A stretch of 64,000 nucleotides of DNA from Escherichia coli (GTDB lineage Bacteria; Pseudomonadota; Gammaproteobacteria; Enterobacterales; Enterobacteriaceae). The position numbers and the translations under genes were made by a program. How positions within the stretch are numbered: position 1 is the first letter of the stretch; every line of letters starts with the position of its first letter. The notes under the pieces are model-generated. The model searched no databases and was not told the DNA's origin. It saw only the letters and a program-made list of their open reading frames with translations. The DNA lies in assembly GCF_050920415.1 (NCBI RefSeq), contig NZ_CP169309.1; one strand, given 5' to 3'. Below are positions 4,499 through 30,600 of this stretch, in pieces.

Positions 4499-4788
4499 TG
4501 GCTAACCTACGCAAAGAAGCGCGCAACAGAGAATGCCAGGTACGTATTTACGGCGTATGCAATGGCAATCCTGAAACTACAGTTCTGGCACATTACCGGA
4601 TGGCTGGAATTTGCGGAACGGGAATGAAACCTGACGACCTGATCGGCGCATGGGCTTGTAGTGACTGCCACGCGGAGATCGACCGACGCACAAGGATTCT
4701 CGACAACAAAGACGCCAGACTTTACCACCTCGAAGGCGTGATAAGGACGCAGGCGATACTGCTGAAGGAGGGGAAGATTAAGCCATGA
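4498..4788 (+). CDS. DUF1364-family protein (YbcO-like, putative nuclease)
   Basis: Cys/His-rich translation ..RECQVRIYGVCNGNPETTVLAHYR..CSDCHAEIDRR.. resembles DLP12 YbcO as recalled. Confidence 0.7.
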   Translation: MANLRKEARNRECQVRIYGVCNGNPETTVLAHYRMAGICGTGMKPDDLIGAWACSDCHAEIDRRTRILDNKDARLYHLEGVIRTQAILLKEGKIKP

Positions 4789-5146
4789 ACGAATATCAGT
4801 TTGTGCTTCCATACCCGCCGTCGCTGAACACCTACTGGCGAAGACGGGGAGTCAATACTACATCAGCGATAAAGGCCAGAAATACCGAAAAGACGTTCAG
4901 CAAATCATCCGCCAACTTAAGTTAGACATTTTCACCAAATCACGACTCCGCATCAAAGTCATCGCAGACGTTCCAGACTCCCGCCGCCGCGACCTCGATA
5001 ACATCCTGAAGGGTTTACTCGACTCCCTTATCCACGCCGGATTTGCGGAAGACGACGAGCAATTCGATGACATTCGCGTAATTCGTGGTGTGAAAGTACC
5101 AGGCGGACGGCTTGGAATAAAAATCACCGAACTGGAGAACGTATGA
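4785..5146 (+). pseudogene. rusA: Holliday-junction resolvase RusA, interrupted by an apparent 1-nt deletion near 4848-4851
   Basis: N-terminal RusA-like MNEYQFVLPYPPSLNTYWRRRG in frame 0 from 4785, RusA-like C-terminus ..DVPDSRRRDLDNILKGLLDSLIHAGF..GGRLGIKITELENV in frame -1 ending 5146; span 362 nt is one short of 121 codons. Confidence 0.7.
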
Positions 5147-24778: not shown

Positions 24779-25348
24779 ATGTCAAGCTTAGCAAAGTCAA
24801 CTGTAAATTGCACTAATAGCATCATCATTTCTGACGTCAAGATTCATATGGATTCAGAGGGTCGTTACTCGCTTAATGACCTTCATGTAGCGTCTGGAAA
24901 GGAGGAAAAACATCAGCCAGCTTTCTTCATGCGTAGAAATGAAACTATTGAATTGATTAATGAAATTTTTAATTCTGCGGATATGCAGAATAAGAATCCC
25001 GTCATTTCTAAGAAAGGTAGATATGGTGGAACATACGTGTGCAAGGAGCTTGTTTACTCCTACGCCATGTGGATTAGCGCAGCATTTGCGCTGAAGGTTA
25101 TCCGCGCATATGACGCAATGGTTACTGCCACACAAGAGAGGAAGGCTATTGGCGGTAAAACTTCAGTAGCTGAACGCACGCCGCTACGCGATGCAGTAAA
25201 CATGCTGGTAGGAAAGAAAGGACTTCGCTATGACGATGCATACAATATGGTTCATCAGCGTTTTGGTATTGACAGCATTGATGAACTTTCAATTGAACAA
25301 ATCCCGCTGGCCGTAGAGTACATCCACAGGGTAGTGCTTGAAGGTGAG
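24779..25348 (+). pseudogene. ant: Antirepressor Ant, 5' part (KilA-N domain), interrupted by IS2
   Basis: KilA-N-like N-terminus; reading frame runs into IS2 left end, which supplies the stop (TAG at 25349-25351). Confidence 0.75.
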
Positions 25349-25439
25349 TAGACTGGCCCCCTGAATCTCCAGACAACCAGTATCACTTAAATAAGTGATA
25401 GTCTTAATACTAGTTTTTAGACTAGTCATTGGAGAACAG

Positions 25440-25805
25440 ATGATTGATGTCTTAGGGCCGGAGAAACGCAGACGGCGTACCACACAGGAAAAGATCGCAA
25501 TTGTTCAGCAGAGCTTTGAACCGGGGATGACGGTCTCCCTCGTTGCCCGGCAACATGGTGTAGCAGCCAGCCAGTTATTTCTCTGGCGTAAGCAATACCA
25601 GGAAGGAAGTCTTACTGCTGTCGCCGCCGGAGAACAGGTTGTTCCTGCCTCTGAACTTGCTGCCGCCATGAAGCAGATTAAAGAACTCCAGCGCCTGCTC
25701 GGCAAGAAAACGATGGAAAATGAACTCCTCAAAGAAGCCGTTGAATATGGACGGGCAAAAAAGTGGATAGCGCACGCGCCCTTATTGCCCGGGGATGGGG
25801 AGTAA
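25440..25805 (+). CDS. insC: IS2 transposase OrfA
   Basis: [41 protein letters not shown].. matches InsC as recalled. Confidence 0.9.
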
Positions 25806-26668
25806 GCTTAGTCAGCCGTTGTCTCCGGGTGTCGCGTGCGCAGTTGCACGTCATTCTCAGACGAACCGATGACTGGATGGATGGCCGCCGCAGTCGTCAC
25901 ACTGATGATACGGATGTGCTTCTCCGTATACACCATGTTATCGGAGAGCTGCCCACGTATGGTTATCGTCGGGTATGGGCGCTGCTTCGCAGACAGGCAG
26001 AACTTGATGGTATGCCTGCGATCAATGCCAAACGTGTTTACCGGATCATGCGCCAGAATGCGCTGTTGCTTGAGCGAAAACCTGCTGTACCGCCATCGAA
26101 ACGGGCACATACAGGCAGAGTGGCCGTGAAAGAAAGCAATCAGCGATGGTGCTCTGACGGGTTCGAGTTCTGCTGTGATAACGGAGAGAGACTGCGTGTC
26201 ACGTTCGCGCTGGACTGCTGTGATCGTGAGGCACTGCACTGGGCGGTGACTACTGGCGGCTTCAACAGTGAAACAGTACAGGACGTCATGCTGGGAGCGG
26301 TGGAACGCCGCTTCGGCGACGATCTTCCGTCGTCTCCAGTGGAGTGGCTGACGGATAATGGTTCATGCTACCGGGCTAATGAAACACGCCAGTTCGCCCG
26401 GATGTTGGGACTTGAACCGAAGAACACGGCGGTGCGGAGTCCGGAGAGTAACGGAATAGCAGAGAGCTTCGTGAAAACGATAAAGCGTGACTACATCAGT
26501 ATCATGCCCAAACCAGACGGGTTAACGGCAGCAAAGAACCTTGCAGAGGCGTTCGAGCATTATAACGAATGGCATCCGCATAGTGCGCTGGGTTATCGCT
26601 CGCCACGGGAATATCTGCGGCAGCGGGCTTGTAATGGGTTAAGTGATAACAGATGTCTGGAAATATAG
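25763..26668 (+). CDS. insD: IS2 transposase OrfB (overlaps orfA in -1 frame)
   Basis: 301 aa; DDE transposase matching InsD as recalled. Confidence 0.9.
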
Positions 26669-26679
26669 GGGCAAATCCA

Positions 26680-27005
26680 GTGAGTTCATTGGCAAACAAG
26701 AGAAGAAAACCAACGAGCTTTCTGCAAAAGAAGCAAACAGCCTTGTATGGTTATGGGATTATGCCAACCGCTCACAGGCATTATTCCGCGAATTGTATCC
26801 GGCATTAAAACAAATTCAATCGAACTATTCCGGCAGATGTCATGACTGCGGTTATGAGTTCTCCCGTATTATCGATATAGCGAGAGACGTTTTAATTAAT
26901 CACACACGAGATGTTGATATCAATGAGCCAGACGGACCAACGAATCTTTCCGCATGGATGAGACTTAAGAATAAAGAATTACCTCCTTCAGTACATAATT
27001 ACTGA
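26680..27005 (+). pseudogene. ant: Antirepressor Ant, 3' part
   Basis: After removing IS2 and one TSD copy (1336 bp) this frame joins 24779..25348 in frame, reconstructing a 296-aa protein. Confidence 0.7.
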
Positions 27006-27105
27006 CAGATAACCAACGCAACGACCCAGCTTCGGCTGGGTTTTTTTATGCCCAAAATTCACCGTAGCCATGCTGCGGCGATTCCTTGTATCTGGAGCAA
27101 ATTAA

Positions 27106-29063
27106 ATGACAGACATTACAGCCAATGTTGTAGTGAGCATGCCTTCGCAACTCTTTACTATGGCCCGCTCTTTTAAAGCCGTAGCTAATGGTAAAATTTA
27201 TATCGGTAAAATTGACACTGACCCGGTAAATCCTGAAAACCAGATTCAGGTTTATGTAGAGAACGAAGACGGCTCTCACGTTCCTGTTTCGCAACCAATC
27301 ATCATTAACGCTGCTGGATATCCGGTATATAACGGACAGATTGCCAAATTCGTAACTGTGCAAGGCCATTCTATGGCTGTATATGATGCGTATGGTGCAC
27401 AGCAGTTCTATTTTCCTAATGTGCTGAAGTATGACCCTGATCAGTTTAAGCAGCAGTTAGAAAGCGATGCTGATGGAATGGGAGATGCATTAGTTACAGT
27501 TAAACAACCGTACACTGGTGCTACTTCTATTTCACAGCACATTAAAAATTCACAGGCTATAAGTGTTATTGATTTTGGCGCTACAATTGACGGAACGCTT
27601 CACCCTTTAAGCGAGATATTTTCAACACTATCAGCCGCTCAGATGGTATATCCATTTGTTTCATCTCTATCTCAATCTGTTGATTATGCTGCGCTTCAGT
27701 CCGCATGTAACACGGGAAAAACAGTGCTTATTCCAAAGGGAACTGGTTACTATAATTCAACTATTTTTCTGAAAAACTCCGTCAGGATTGTTGGAGAGGG
27801 AACTGATACAATAAATAGAGCGCAATCATTTATGTCTATTGTTGGTAATATTTCAGCCTTTGCTTTAGATCAAGGTGATTCACTATCGACAAAAATGATT
27901 CAGATTTTTATTGATGGTCTTTATATTTTCTATGATCCAGGAACCACACCAACGAATCCTGAAGATGATGGTGGGAAAATTGCATTTAATTTCTACTCGA
28001 CAATTCCAAATTCAACAAGCTTGGAAATGTCTGAAATTAAAAACTGTACAGTTCATGGTGCATGGTCATGCTTTAATGATCAGACTGGCACATACTTGAC
28101 AAAACTTACGAATGTGTGGGCCAGAAACTGCCATAATGGTTTTACAAAAGGAACTGGCACTACCATTCTGATGGAAAGATGTTATACATCTGGATGTATA
28201 TCACCATATCAGTTTGGTTCTGTCTTTGCAGCTACAATGATTAACTGTGCCATGGATGGATCAAATATTTCGTTAAACGCAGGTTCGCTTGGTGGGGCTG
28301 GCGTTCATGTTCTTAACACACATAGTTTTAACATTATTGGTTTTGATGCGGAGGGTAACACCATCTCTACAGATGGTTATGGAGAGGCAGCACTATTCCA
28401 TTTCGAAAATAGTAGTGGTGGCATTTCTGGCCTGACTGCACATCAGAACAGCATGCGAAGTGTTGCGCCAAGTGATGCTGGTGTAGTTTCCTACATCAGG
28501 GCGTCAGGTAGCAGCGATGTAAAATTGAGTCATCAGAAGATGATTTATCTGACACCAACACAGTTGCATATACTGGGTCTGGGTATCCCATCATGCTACA
28601 TGCAACTGACACAGCTAAAATAAGCGTCTTTAATAGCAGATTCAGGGCGACTACCACTGGTACCCCTGTCTTAAGTACGCTAAGTACTGGTGATGTATCA
28701 TGGTATGACTGCCCTAAAAAAACAGGACTTATCGTAGATGGTTATTCACAAATAACATCTAAGGAAGGATTGCAAACATCATGCTTCTATACCAGTAAAG
28801 GCTCTACTGCTGTTGCTGAAAATACTCCGACAACACTTTTCTCTCTACCAGATTCGCAAGGTACTTACATTATTAGCGTATGGGGGGCTGGAAGCGGAGA
28901 AAATTACGCATCTACACAACTGGCAATGTATGATGGAGATAAGCTAATTCTTGTTGCGTTAAAAATAGCAGCATTTCTTAGTTTTTCAGCAACAGGGAGA
29001 ATTGTAACCATTACAAGCCAGGGCACAGGCACTTTTAATTGGACCTACACAAAAATAGGTTAA
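27106..29063 (+). pseudogene. Tailspike with P22-like head-binding N-terminus and divergent receptor-binding domain; apparent 1-nt frameshift between 28512 and 28590
   Basis: N-terminus [11 protein letters not shown]...[33 protein letters not shown] matches P22 gp9 as recalled; frame 27106..28623 and frame 28512..29063 overlap, together about 652 codons. Confidence 0.65.
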
Positions 29064-29206
29064 TATATTTTGAACTATCTACGTTATTTAGTTCGTTAAG
29101 TAGACATAGGGCGGTTATCTCTGTTGCTGGTGAGAAAAAAATGAGAAACACAAAGCTTTGCACTGTATTGCAAGGCTTTGCGCTCTTCGATAGTGGTTAA
29201 GGTGGA

Positions 29207-30364
29207 TCACTCCACCTTTTCATCAATCCAATCCGCCCACCACTGCATCATTTCTCTGCGCTTATCGAGATACTGAGCATGGTTGTAAATTCCGCGCACA
29301 GATCCGCCGTTGGCATGTGCCAGTTGCACTTCAATAGCATCAGCAGGCCATTCGTGCTCGTTCATAATCGTGCTGAATTCATGCCTGAATCCGTGACCGC
29401 TTTCCAGACCTTCATAGCCGATTTGTTTGATCACAAGCAGTACCGCGTTCTCGCAGATTGGCTTCTTCTTATCGTTGCGCCCGGCAAAAACAAACTCTGA
29501 TACTGGTTTGGTGATTGAGCTTAGCGTAGTGAGAAGTTCAACCACCTGGTCCGACATCGGGACAACATGAATCTTGCGTCCCTTCATCACACTGGCGTCG
29601 ATAGTGATAATCCTGTTTTCAAAATCGACGTTCTTCCATTGCATGGAACGAAGCTCTTTCGTTCTTAGGGCTGTGTAGCGTAAAACTTTGGTCGCAATGA
29701 GCGATACGATACTTCCTGAAAATGTTGCCAGTGCTTTGTTGAATGCAGGGATCTGGTCTGCAGGAAGAAACGGGAAGTTCTTCTTGCGGTATCCCTTCAT
29801 GGCGTCAGCAAGGTCAGGTGCCGGGTTATATTTAGCCCTTCCGGTGACAATAGCGTAACGGAAAACCTCGCCGCATCTTCTGCGTGCTTTGTTGGCTCGC
29901 TCCATTGCACCGCGATCTTCAAATCTGCGGATTACTTCCAGAAGTTGCATCGGCTCAATATCCTGAATTTCAAGGCTGCCGATGATAGGTAAAATGTCGT
30001 CATCAAACATTTTGGCAAGTTCAGTTGCATAGCCTACTGACCAGACTTGCTTCTTGTGCTCGTACCATTCCTTGTAAATCGCACTAAAGGAATTGTTGTT
30101 AGACGAAGCCTTTTTCGCCTTTACCGGATCGATACCAACCGAGATGTCTTTCCTCGCAGTCCATGCTTTATCCCTTGCCTCCTGCAAAGTCATAAGCGGA
30201 TATTTTCCGACGGTCAGGATTTTCTCCTTACCGTCAATCTTGTAGCGAAGCTGCCATACCTTTTTCCCTGACACAGGGACATAAAGGTACAGGCCATTAC
30301 CATCGAGAAGGCGGTATGGTTTTTCTTTCGGCTTTGCTGCTTCAATCTGCTTAACGGTGAGCAT
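29207..30364 (-). CDS. intS: Tyrosine integrase (IntS-like)
   Basis: MLTVKQIEAAKPKEKPYRLLDGNGLYLYVP.. matches recalled K-12 IntS; start taken at Met13 of the listed ORF. Confidence 0.9.
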   Translation of the reverse strand: MLTVKQIEAAKPKEKPYRLLDGNGLYLYVPVSGKKVWQLRYKIDGKEKILTVGKYPLMTLQEARDKAWTARKDISVGIDPVKAKKASSNNNSFSAIYKEWYEHKKQVWSVGYATELAKMFDDDILPIIGSLEIQDIEPMQLLEVIRRFEDRGAMERANKARRRCGEVFRYAIVTGRAKYNPAPDLADAMKGYRKKNFPFLPADQIPAFNKALATFSGSIVSLIATKVLRYTALRTKELRSMQWKNVDFENRIITIDASVMKGRKIHVVPMSDQVVELLTTLSSITKPVSEFVFAGRNDKKKPICENAVLLVIKQIGYEGLESGHGFRHEFSTIMNEHEWPADAIEVQLAHANGGSVRGIYNHAQYLDKRREMMQWWADWIDEKVE

Positions 30365-30525
30365 GGGTAAAAATCCGGTGGGTAAAATTATTTTATCCAC
30401 TTTTTACCCGTCATGGTGTGCGGCTGTCAACGATCTGACGCGAACCATGACGAACTGTGAATCTACGGAAGGCTTGATATTCAGGGGATTTTGCGGACTG
30501 GTACGGATGGGAGCGAACTGATAAA

Positions 30526-30600
30526 TGGTGTCCCCTGCAGGAATCGAACCTGCAATTAGCCCTTAGGAGGGGCTCGTTATATCCATTTAACTAAGAGGAC
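30526..30600 (-). tRNA. argW: tRNA-Arg (argW), prophage integration site
   Basis: Reverse complement reads GTCCTCTTAGTTAAATGGATATAACGAGCCCCTCCTAAGGGCTAATTGCAGGTTCGATTCCTGCAGGGGACACCA. Confidence 0.95.

Follow-up and report, generated by a model that had tools for sequence, protein, structure and literature searches.

The interval 27106..29063 (+) of the window, a 64,000-nt stretch of Escherichia coli contig NZ_CP169309.1, is in our judgement, with good confidence, the tailspike gene of a prophage that is P22-like (Lederbergvirus-type), almost intact and inserted at argW; the gene carries a receptor-binding domain (RBD) of O2/O50 type and is frameshifted. As assembled, the gene is a pseudogene of the P22-like tailspike family. 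Instead of the one uninterrupted full-length frame of this family, a 1-nt deletion leaves a truncated 505-aa product. The gene is 1958 nt long, compared with 1959 nt and 652 aa for intact homologues.

The first open reading frame (27106..28623, +) encodes 505 aa, and its ATG start is preceded at 8 nt by a GGAG sequence. A second frame begins immediately behind a TAG (28509-28511) and stays open from 28512 until the stop at 29061-29063. An earlier note on this DNA had described a gene split into 27106..28623 and 28512..29063, and both frames are present. It had also placed a 1-nt deletion within 28512-28590, and the alignment located it there. The global alignment of 27106-29063 with its counterpart in E. 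coli ETEC1730, an intact gene of 1959 nt, contains 48 substitutions and a single indel: the window lacks a T after 28519, which changes GATGTTAAAATT to GATGTAAAATT. No further indel appeared when the alignment was widened to 26680-29292. Homologues read GAT GTT AAA ATT GAG at this position, and the window reads GAT GTA AAA TTG AG. The deleted base is one T of the TT dinucleotide that abuts the AAAA run (28521-28524) on its 5′ side; the note had suggested a possible loss within the run itself. When the T was put back, a single 652-codon frame was obtained, which agrees with the length of about 652 codons predicted for the restored gene.

In a megablast search against complete E. coli genomes, five full-length matches were found at 97.6% identity, each of 1959 nt versus 1958 nt here. 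The complete cluster members whose sequences were retrieved (7/7) are 652 aa long and uninterrupted across the break site, and the shorter cluster members listed are named 'partial' or are fragments. A natural end at 28623, the other arrangement that the note had considered, was found in none of the complete cluster members examined, all of which read straight through. The 505-aa product and a 156-aa product are each recorded from one contig only, a 5,311,592-bp E. coli chromosome, in whose assembly the proteins XVM74075 and XVM74076 are listed. The latter product is a separately annotated open reading frame starting at the ATG at 28593, and no obvious ribosome-binding site is found upstream of it in the sequence. 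A natural two-gene arrangement was ruled out because each complete homologue seen has one frame of 652 aa and no ribosome-binding site is visible for the 156-aa frame. Broken prophage genes are common, and the frameshift is important chiefly for annotation: the tailspike is currently annotated as two proteins (WP_432780934 and WP_432780935) and needs either correction or a label as a frameshifted pseudogene. The coordinates of the features are listed in Table 1.

Table 1. Features of the tailspike gene and its surroundings (window coordinates)
Feature	Coordinates	Strand	Basis and remarks
Whole tailspike gene (equivalent of P22 gene 9 and Sf6 gene 14)	27106..29063	+	Open reading frames, homologue alignment, repaired translation
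Head-binding (particle-attachment) domain, residues 1-113	27106..27444	+	Pfam PF09008; PDB matches to the P22 and Sf6 N-terminal domains
In-frame part of the exchangeable RBD, residues ~140-471	27525..28518	+	Predicted N-terminal cap and right-handed parallel β-helix; holds D325, D384, D414 and E416
1-nt deletion site	28519..28520	+	G-TT-AAAA in homologues, G-T-AAAA in the window; frame diverges from codon 474 (TTG for ATT)
Out-of-frame tail of the 505-aa product	28521..28623	+	About 32 aberrant residues from codon 474; TAA at 28621-28623
Frame for the lost C-terminal 181 residues (472-652)	28512..29063	+	Predicted last helix rungs and all-β C-terminal module
Prophage integrase	29207..30400	-	Followed by tRNA-Arg(CCT) (30526-30600) and yfdC; right prophage end at the argW attachment site
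Terminator-like GC-rich hairpin and T run (cccagcttcggctgggttttttt)	27020..27046	+	Read from the sequence; between the ant remnant and the tailspike start
IS2, 1331 bp, with 5-bp target duplication GTGAG	25349..26679	+	Inserted in the antirepressor gene just upstream of the tailspike

The tailspike lies at the position of gene 9 in P22: the immI region and a complete virion module precede it, and the integrase follows. The genes upstream are TerS/L, portal, scaffold, coat, gp4, gp10, gp26, gp14, gp7, gp20 and gp16, followed by the ant remnant. Compared with the related prophage of strain GB089, 21 other prophage genes, including Q, holin, lysozyme, Rz, TerS, TerL, portal, scaffold, coat, gp4, gp10, gp14, gp7, gp20 and gp16, are full length and in a single frame. 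With the IS2 insertion in ant, the prophage has undergone a separate and real inactivation, which may have a polar effect on the tailspike gene. The second 1-nt deletion that the note had seen, in rusA, is present in the sequence as a missing A after 4849 (GGGGAAG to GGGGAG); the homologous genomes among the matches listed all have 862 nt in this region versus 861 nt in the window. No near-identical prophage was found elsewhere, the best match being a mosaic one with 96-97% identity over ~78% of the query. The chromosomal flank (30520-64000) aligns over 33,481 nt with the independent assembly of a sister strain, MFDS1022581, with 3 mismatches and no gap, and the argW site of this sister strain is empty. 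Therefore, the prophage was either recently gained here or recently lost in the sister strain.

We lean slightly towards the view that the deletion in the tailspike gene is a real and very recent mutation. There is an appreciable chance, though short of even, that the gene is intact in the real genome and that the missing T and the missing A of rusA are errors made in the consensus or in polishing. The 505-aa and 156-aa products come from exactly one contig, all other complete cluster members seen being of 652 aa, and both deletions affect a dinucleotide abutting a 4-mer homopolymer (TT|AAAA to T|AAAA and GGGG|AA to GGGG|A), a context typical of signal-based miscalls. The gene shows no other decay; the two substitutions found in no compared homologue (27783 and 27882) are at third codon positions. 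The absence of the prophage from the sister strain (3 SNPs in 33 kb) points to a probably recent infection, for which a working tailspike would have been needed. The break also lies within a 1.4-kb stretch that is apparently duplicated at >99% identity in the same genome, which would make mis-mapping during polishing possible, but mis-mapped reads from an intact paralogue would not produce a deletion. Against an error and for a real mutation are the zero indels in the 33.5-kb flank relative to the independent assembly, in whose RefSeq annotation no gene of the flank is marked as frameshifted, the intactness of all 21 other prophage genes tested, and the bona fide IS2 insertion with its target duplication in the same prophage. 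The contrast between 0 indels in the 33-kb flank and 2 in the 30-kb prophage is not significant, as it comprises only two events. Such decay does occur in another prophage as well. In PEC422, the homologous tailspike of a prophage at the same argW site is split by an IS2-like element at the equivalent of 28562-28567, and it is thus independently destroyed at ~45 nt from the deletion site here.

The head-binding domain that the note had assigned to the first ~120 residues is well defined. Pfam PF09008 matches residues 1-113 over its full profile length (E = 2.5e-67, 224.7 bits against a cutoff of 24), and the corresponding DNA is 90-95% identical to that of HK620, CUS-3, Sf6 and other P22-like phages. 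Megablast matches to phages are confined to nt 1-357, and the similarity ends at approximately nt 340-357. Likewise, a sequence search of the PDB matched the P22 tailspike chains 8tvr and 2xc1 to residues 1-117 only, and no P22-tailspike body domain was detected in a Pfam scan with E values up to 1. At the level of sequence, the body beyond approximately residue 120 falls outside the RBD family of the P22 endorhamnosidase, and the note's remark that the remainder does not resemble this enzyme is confirmed to that extent.

The RBD body is modeled as a right-handed parallel β-helix, the fold of tailspikes. In a Foldseek search with the predicted structure, the Sf6 tailspike was the top match and the P22 tailspike was matched with a probability of 1.0. 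Of the two folds that the note had put forward, the prediction thus favors the β-helix and not an EndoN-like fold. The pectate-lyase-like family PF12708 scored 16.8 bits at residues 152-383, against a cutoff of 27. Precomputed PF12708 assignments are present on some homologues, and the predicted structure is consistent with a pectate-lyase-like β-helix. The fold by itself cannot distinguish a hydrolase from a lyase or from pure binding.

Solved structures in the PDB match the RBD by sequence or profile over its first ~90 residues, and none matches the catalytic body beyond them; because of this, catalytic residues were proposed from conservation alone. The acidic helix residues D325, D384 and E416 are invariant, and D414 is nearly so. 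We propose D384, D414 and E416, which would lie on adjacent rungs, as candidate catalytic acids, and D325 is also among the putative active-site residues. The spacing of D384, D414 and E416 resembles that of the catalytic acids of the P22, Sf6 and HK620 tailspikes. Conservation is 0.50-0.58 in the lost C-terminal part versus 0.58-0.67 in the rest of the RBD, and every full-length homologue covers the C-terminal end of the RBD.

Among characterized tailspikes, a close comparison is Sf6 gp14 (an endorhamnosidase; PDB 2vbk and 7sg7), also from a P22-like phage. The head-binding domains are almost identical, and sequence similarity is detectable to approximately residue 257 (E = 7e-77). However, the β-helix body and the C-terminal module show no detectable sequence similarity past the first rungs, and the catalytic residues are not alignable. 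The substrate of the Sf6 tailspike is a rhamnose-rich O-antigen; its host is Shigella flexneri, whereas the host here is E. coli, probably of type O2/O50. P22 gp9, another endorhamnosidase, has the same arrangement of a head-binding domain, a β-helix and a C-terminal assembly region, but only residues 1-117 match in sequence and the serogroup is different. The tailspikes of Pseudomonas phages LKA1 (gp49) and phi297 (PDB 4ru4 and 4ru5) match over ~90 residues, corresponding to the N-terminal helix cap only, and act on other hosts and glycans.

Comparison of the homologues by sequence indicates that the RBD, from approximately residue 140, is mobile, occurring as a module joined to at least four different N-terminal adaptors. 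On a 751-aa tail protein it is 96-98% identical; this protein belongs to another prophage, of podovirus type, which encodes a T7_gp14-type internal protein and lies near yfgI, beside an O-antigen-type acyltransferase. It is 59-66% identical on proteins of ~660-670 aa with a PF18668 anchor, encoded on contigs of 44-48 kb, and 46% identical on a second P22-type tailspike lineage, P0121 (639 aa). Among 50,697 GenBank phage records, no cultured-phage RBD exceeds 54% identity. The closest ones, from JeanPiccard (Veterinaerplatzvirus, Drexlerviridae), SU57 and RobRod40, are 53-54% identical over 98-99% of the module; in JeanPiccard, the module (53%) is part of a lateral tail fibre with another N-terminal anchor on a siphovirus virion.

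The O2/O50 wzx-wzy segment was found in 135 of 5426 complete genomes (2.5%). All six complete E. coli genomes that carry the RBD of the window (ETEC1703, ETEC1717, ETEC1718, ETEC1730, PEC422 and FT130) have the O2/O50 cluster, as do all seven with the 46%-identical P0121 lineage (SB0258h1, YZLc1-3, PSJ-23, EC17CM6, Ec-U3, EFF60 and FT130), so that 12/12 distinct genomes with either lineage are O2/O50. One homologue is from a record named 'Escherichia coli O2', and the O-antigen cluster of FT130 is identical to that of APEC O2-211. The prophages with the two lineages occupy three integration sites at least (torT, argW and yfgI), and a bioA-adjacent site is also used by the P0121 lineage in draft genomes. 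They are of different phage types and come from unrelated host sources. Because of these multiple sites, phage types and sources, the association does not reduce to a single clone, though the four ETEC strains probably have a common background. The sister strain MFDS1022581 has an O2/O50-family wzx/wzy cluster (no record places its exact Wzy protein on the 5.31-Mb contig), and from this near-identical strain we infer an O2/O50 O-type for the host of the window. The note had expected a glycan specificity different from that of P22, and the apparent confinement of the RBD to O2/O50 hosts among the complete genomes examined is in line with it.

A lyase mechanism requires a uronic acid, and the O2/O50 O-unit is not known to contain one. 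The O2 and O50 O-antigens have a common main chain in which L-Rha occurs more than once and to which O2 adds a D-Fuc3NAc branch (PMC7685785). Because the RBD is found only with O2/O50 hosts and this main chain contains L-rhamnose, we suggest that the RBD is an O2/O50-specific endoglycosidase, possibly an endorhamnosidase.

It is quite improbable that the target of the RBD is not the O-antigen but another surface glycan (such as capsule, colanic acid or enterobacterial common antigen) and that its link with O2/O50 is indirect. The β-helix fold does not define the substrate, and PHROG 8280, a tail spike group whose annotation includes degradation of colanic acid, matches residues 1-300; however, this match is limited to the shared N-terminal part, and the best whole-protein match, PHROG 8649, has no function assigned. 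The 53%-identical module of JeanPiccard belongs to a phage isolated on K-12, which lacks O-antigen. In the available text of the BASEL paper, JeanPiccard is mentioned only for LptD, its likely terminal receptor, and the passages on wecB and enterobacterial common antigen concern other phage groups. Enterobacterial common antigen as the receptor, proposed by way of the JeanPiccard fibre, was dropped for this reason. The occurrence of O2/O50 in 12/12 genomes with the two RBD lineages versus a base rate of 2.5%, over varied phages, sites and sources, argues for the O-antigen as the target.

Mosaic tailspikes whose RBD tracks the host O-serogroup are already well known. In the available text of a study of E. 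coli phage and prophage tailspikes, C-terminal RBDs are swapped horizontally across phage genera, N-terminal anchors are genus-specific and RBD clusters track O-serogroups (PMC10408124, Virol J 2023), which is the same principle as observed here. The serogroups given there are STEC-associated (O26, O45, O91, O103, O104, O111, O145, O146 and O157); in the main text as available, O50 is absent and the sole match to 'serogroup O2' is the start of 'O26'. No O2-specific tailspike was found in the literature searched, relative to which both the assignment to O2/O50 and the two diverged lineages confined to these O-types appear to be new. The practical value lies in this assignment. Among extraintestinal pathogenic E. 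coli of birds and humans, O2 is a major serogroup, and the O2/O50-restricted module, defined by its sequence, is a ready candidate for use in serotyping reagents, in engineered phages or tailocins, and in predicting host range.

By analogy with the tailspikes of P22, Sf6 and HK620, the intact protein would be a trimer that binds and cleaves the host O-antigen. Residues 1-113 would attach it to the virion, and the part from approximately residue 140, a β-helix followed by an all-β C-terminal module, would serve as the exchangeable receptor-binding module. The loss of one T from the TT at 28519/28520 is predicted to take the ribosome out of frame after codon 473 and to lead it to the stop at 28623. 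The product of 505 aa retains the head-binding domain and most of the helix, and the frameshift would remove 181 conserved C-terminal residues, from the last rungs through to the end of the C-terminal module. Trimer assembly of P22-type tailspikes depends on the C-terminal region, which drives it. Because this region is lost, the 505-aa product should be non-functional. The prophage should thus be unable to make infectious particles on its own, and tailless particles are expected.

We consider it extremely unlikely that the break is leaky, with a -1 slip of tRNA-Lys on A_AAA (28521-28524) yielding some full-length tailspike: in the frame-0 sequence GAT GTA AAA TTG, re-pairing from AAA at 28522-28524 to 28521-28523 would place ATT GAG next and restore the wild-type ...D-V-K-I-E... 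exactly, and slippage of Lys-tRNA on A runs is known in E. coli, but the site (GTA AAA T) contains no canonical X XXY YYZ heptamer, GTA in the P site cannot re-pair, no stimulatory structure is evident, four A residues are too few for transcriptional slippage, and the expected efficiency is very low. Every homologue compared has a single frame, so the site is not a conserved recoding site, and the conserved pair of frames and the slippery heptamer of a programmed ribosomal frameshift are both lacking.

The RBD and the P0121 lineage might together define a hitherto unassigned O2/O50-specific depolymerase family on at least four anchors, of which this host would hold at most three copies. The repeated knock-out of such genes, by a frameshift here and by an IS2-like element in PEC422, would then reflect selection against a self-targeting depolymerase instead of neutral decay, and a co-resident P22-type prophage whose head-binding domain is compatible could supply tailspikes in trans. 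We regard this combined scenario as improbable. The genome of the window appears to carry, in addition, the module in its 751-aa form and a P0121 cluster member, giving up to three copies. At 28592-28814, the window shares variants with the 751-aa allele and not with the ETEC1730 allele, which suggests recombination between the tailspike and the 751-aa copies.

The homologous tailspike gene of PEC422 is split by an IS2-like element (locus L003, 5463-6794) at a position equivalent to window 28562-28567, approximately 45 nt 3' of the tailspike deletion in the window. The PEC422 prophage carrying the broken gene also sits at argW, and its IS2-like element shows 95.6% identity to the IS2 of the window and has the opposite orientation. 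Through this insertion the tailspike gene has been knocked out a second time, independently of the deletion in the window.

Two other genes of the prophage are also interrupted. A 1-nt deletion at 4849-4850, which changes GGGGAAG to GGGGAG, splits rusA (about 4779-5140); the rusA region comprises 861 nt in the window and 862 nt in homologous E. coli genomes among the top matches listed. The rusA and tailspike deletions have a common context, a dinucleotide adjoining a 4-mer homopolymer. The prophage antirepressor gene (ant) is interrupted by a complete IS2, and only the last 52 nt of its 5' half are related to the ant gene of ETEC1730, a strain with an intact tailspike homologue.

Coordinates of IS2, ant and the fimbrial adhesin gene in the window
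Feature	Position	Strand	Remarks
IS2, complete, 1331 bp	25349-26679	+ (insC/insD)	5-bp target duplication GTGAG
ant, one side of IS2	24779-25351		
ant, other side of IS2	26643-27005		
StfH/YfcO-family adhesin gene	about 46876-47721		placed by correspondence with L011 16516-17361

Within the receptor-binding domain of the tailspike, approximately 17 variant sites at window 28592-28814 agree with P0020, the gene for the 751-aa tail protein of a different prophage type, and not with the 652-aa ETEC1730 allele. The 751-aa gene is apparently also present in the window's own genome. The variant patch looks like the product of recombination or gene conversion between two copies of the domain.

P22-type tailspikes include a second lineage, 639 aa long and with a receptor-binding domain 46% identical; at loci L006-L009 and in seven complete genomes it is always followed by an Acyl_transf_3 gene. 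This lineage adjoins bioA in the draft genomes examined, and all seven complete genomes are O2/O50. The lineage may have adapted to an acetylated variant of O2/O50. In the O2/O50 clusters of the sister strain MFDS1022581 (L012, 13528-13974) and of FT130 (L013, 3704-4075), which carries the domain, the acyltransferase gene flanked by the 3,4-ketoisomerase and aminotransferase genes of the Fuc3NAc pathway appears in the annotation as two pseudogene fragments, both partial.

From 30520 onward, the window differs from MFDS1022581 (L010) by 3 mismatches and 0 gaps over 33.5 kb. The argW site of MFDS1022581 is empty, with the order csc genes, tRNA-Arg and yfdC, and its chromosome is shorter than that of the window's source by 89,387 bp, about the size of two prophages. 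The annotation of the sister strain lists its StfH/YfcO-family fimbrial adhesin gene (L011) as a pseudogene containing an internal stop, and the window copy presumably has the same defect.

When the flanks were compared, cross-matches revealed an 83-nt element present twice in the yfcL-mnmC intergenic region, as direct copies approximately 96% alike (window 53065-53147 and 53159-53241).
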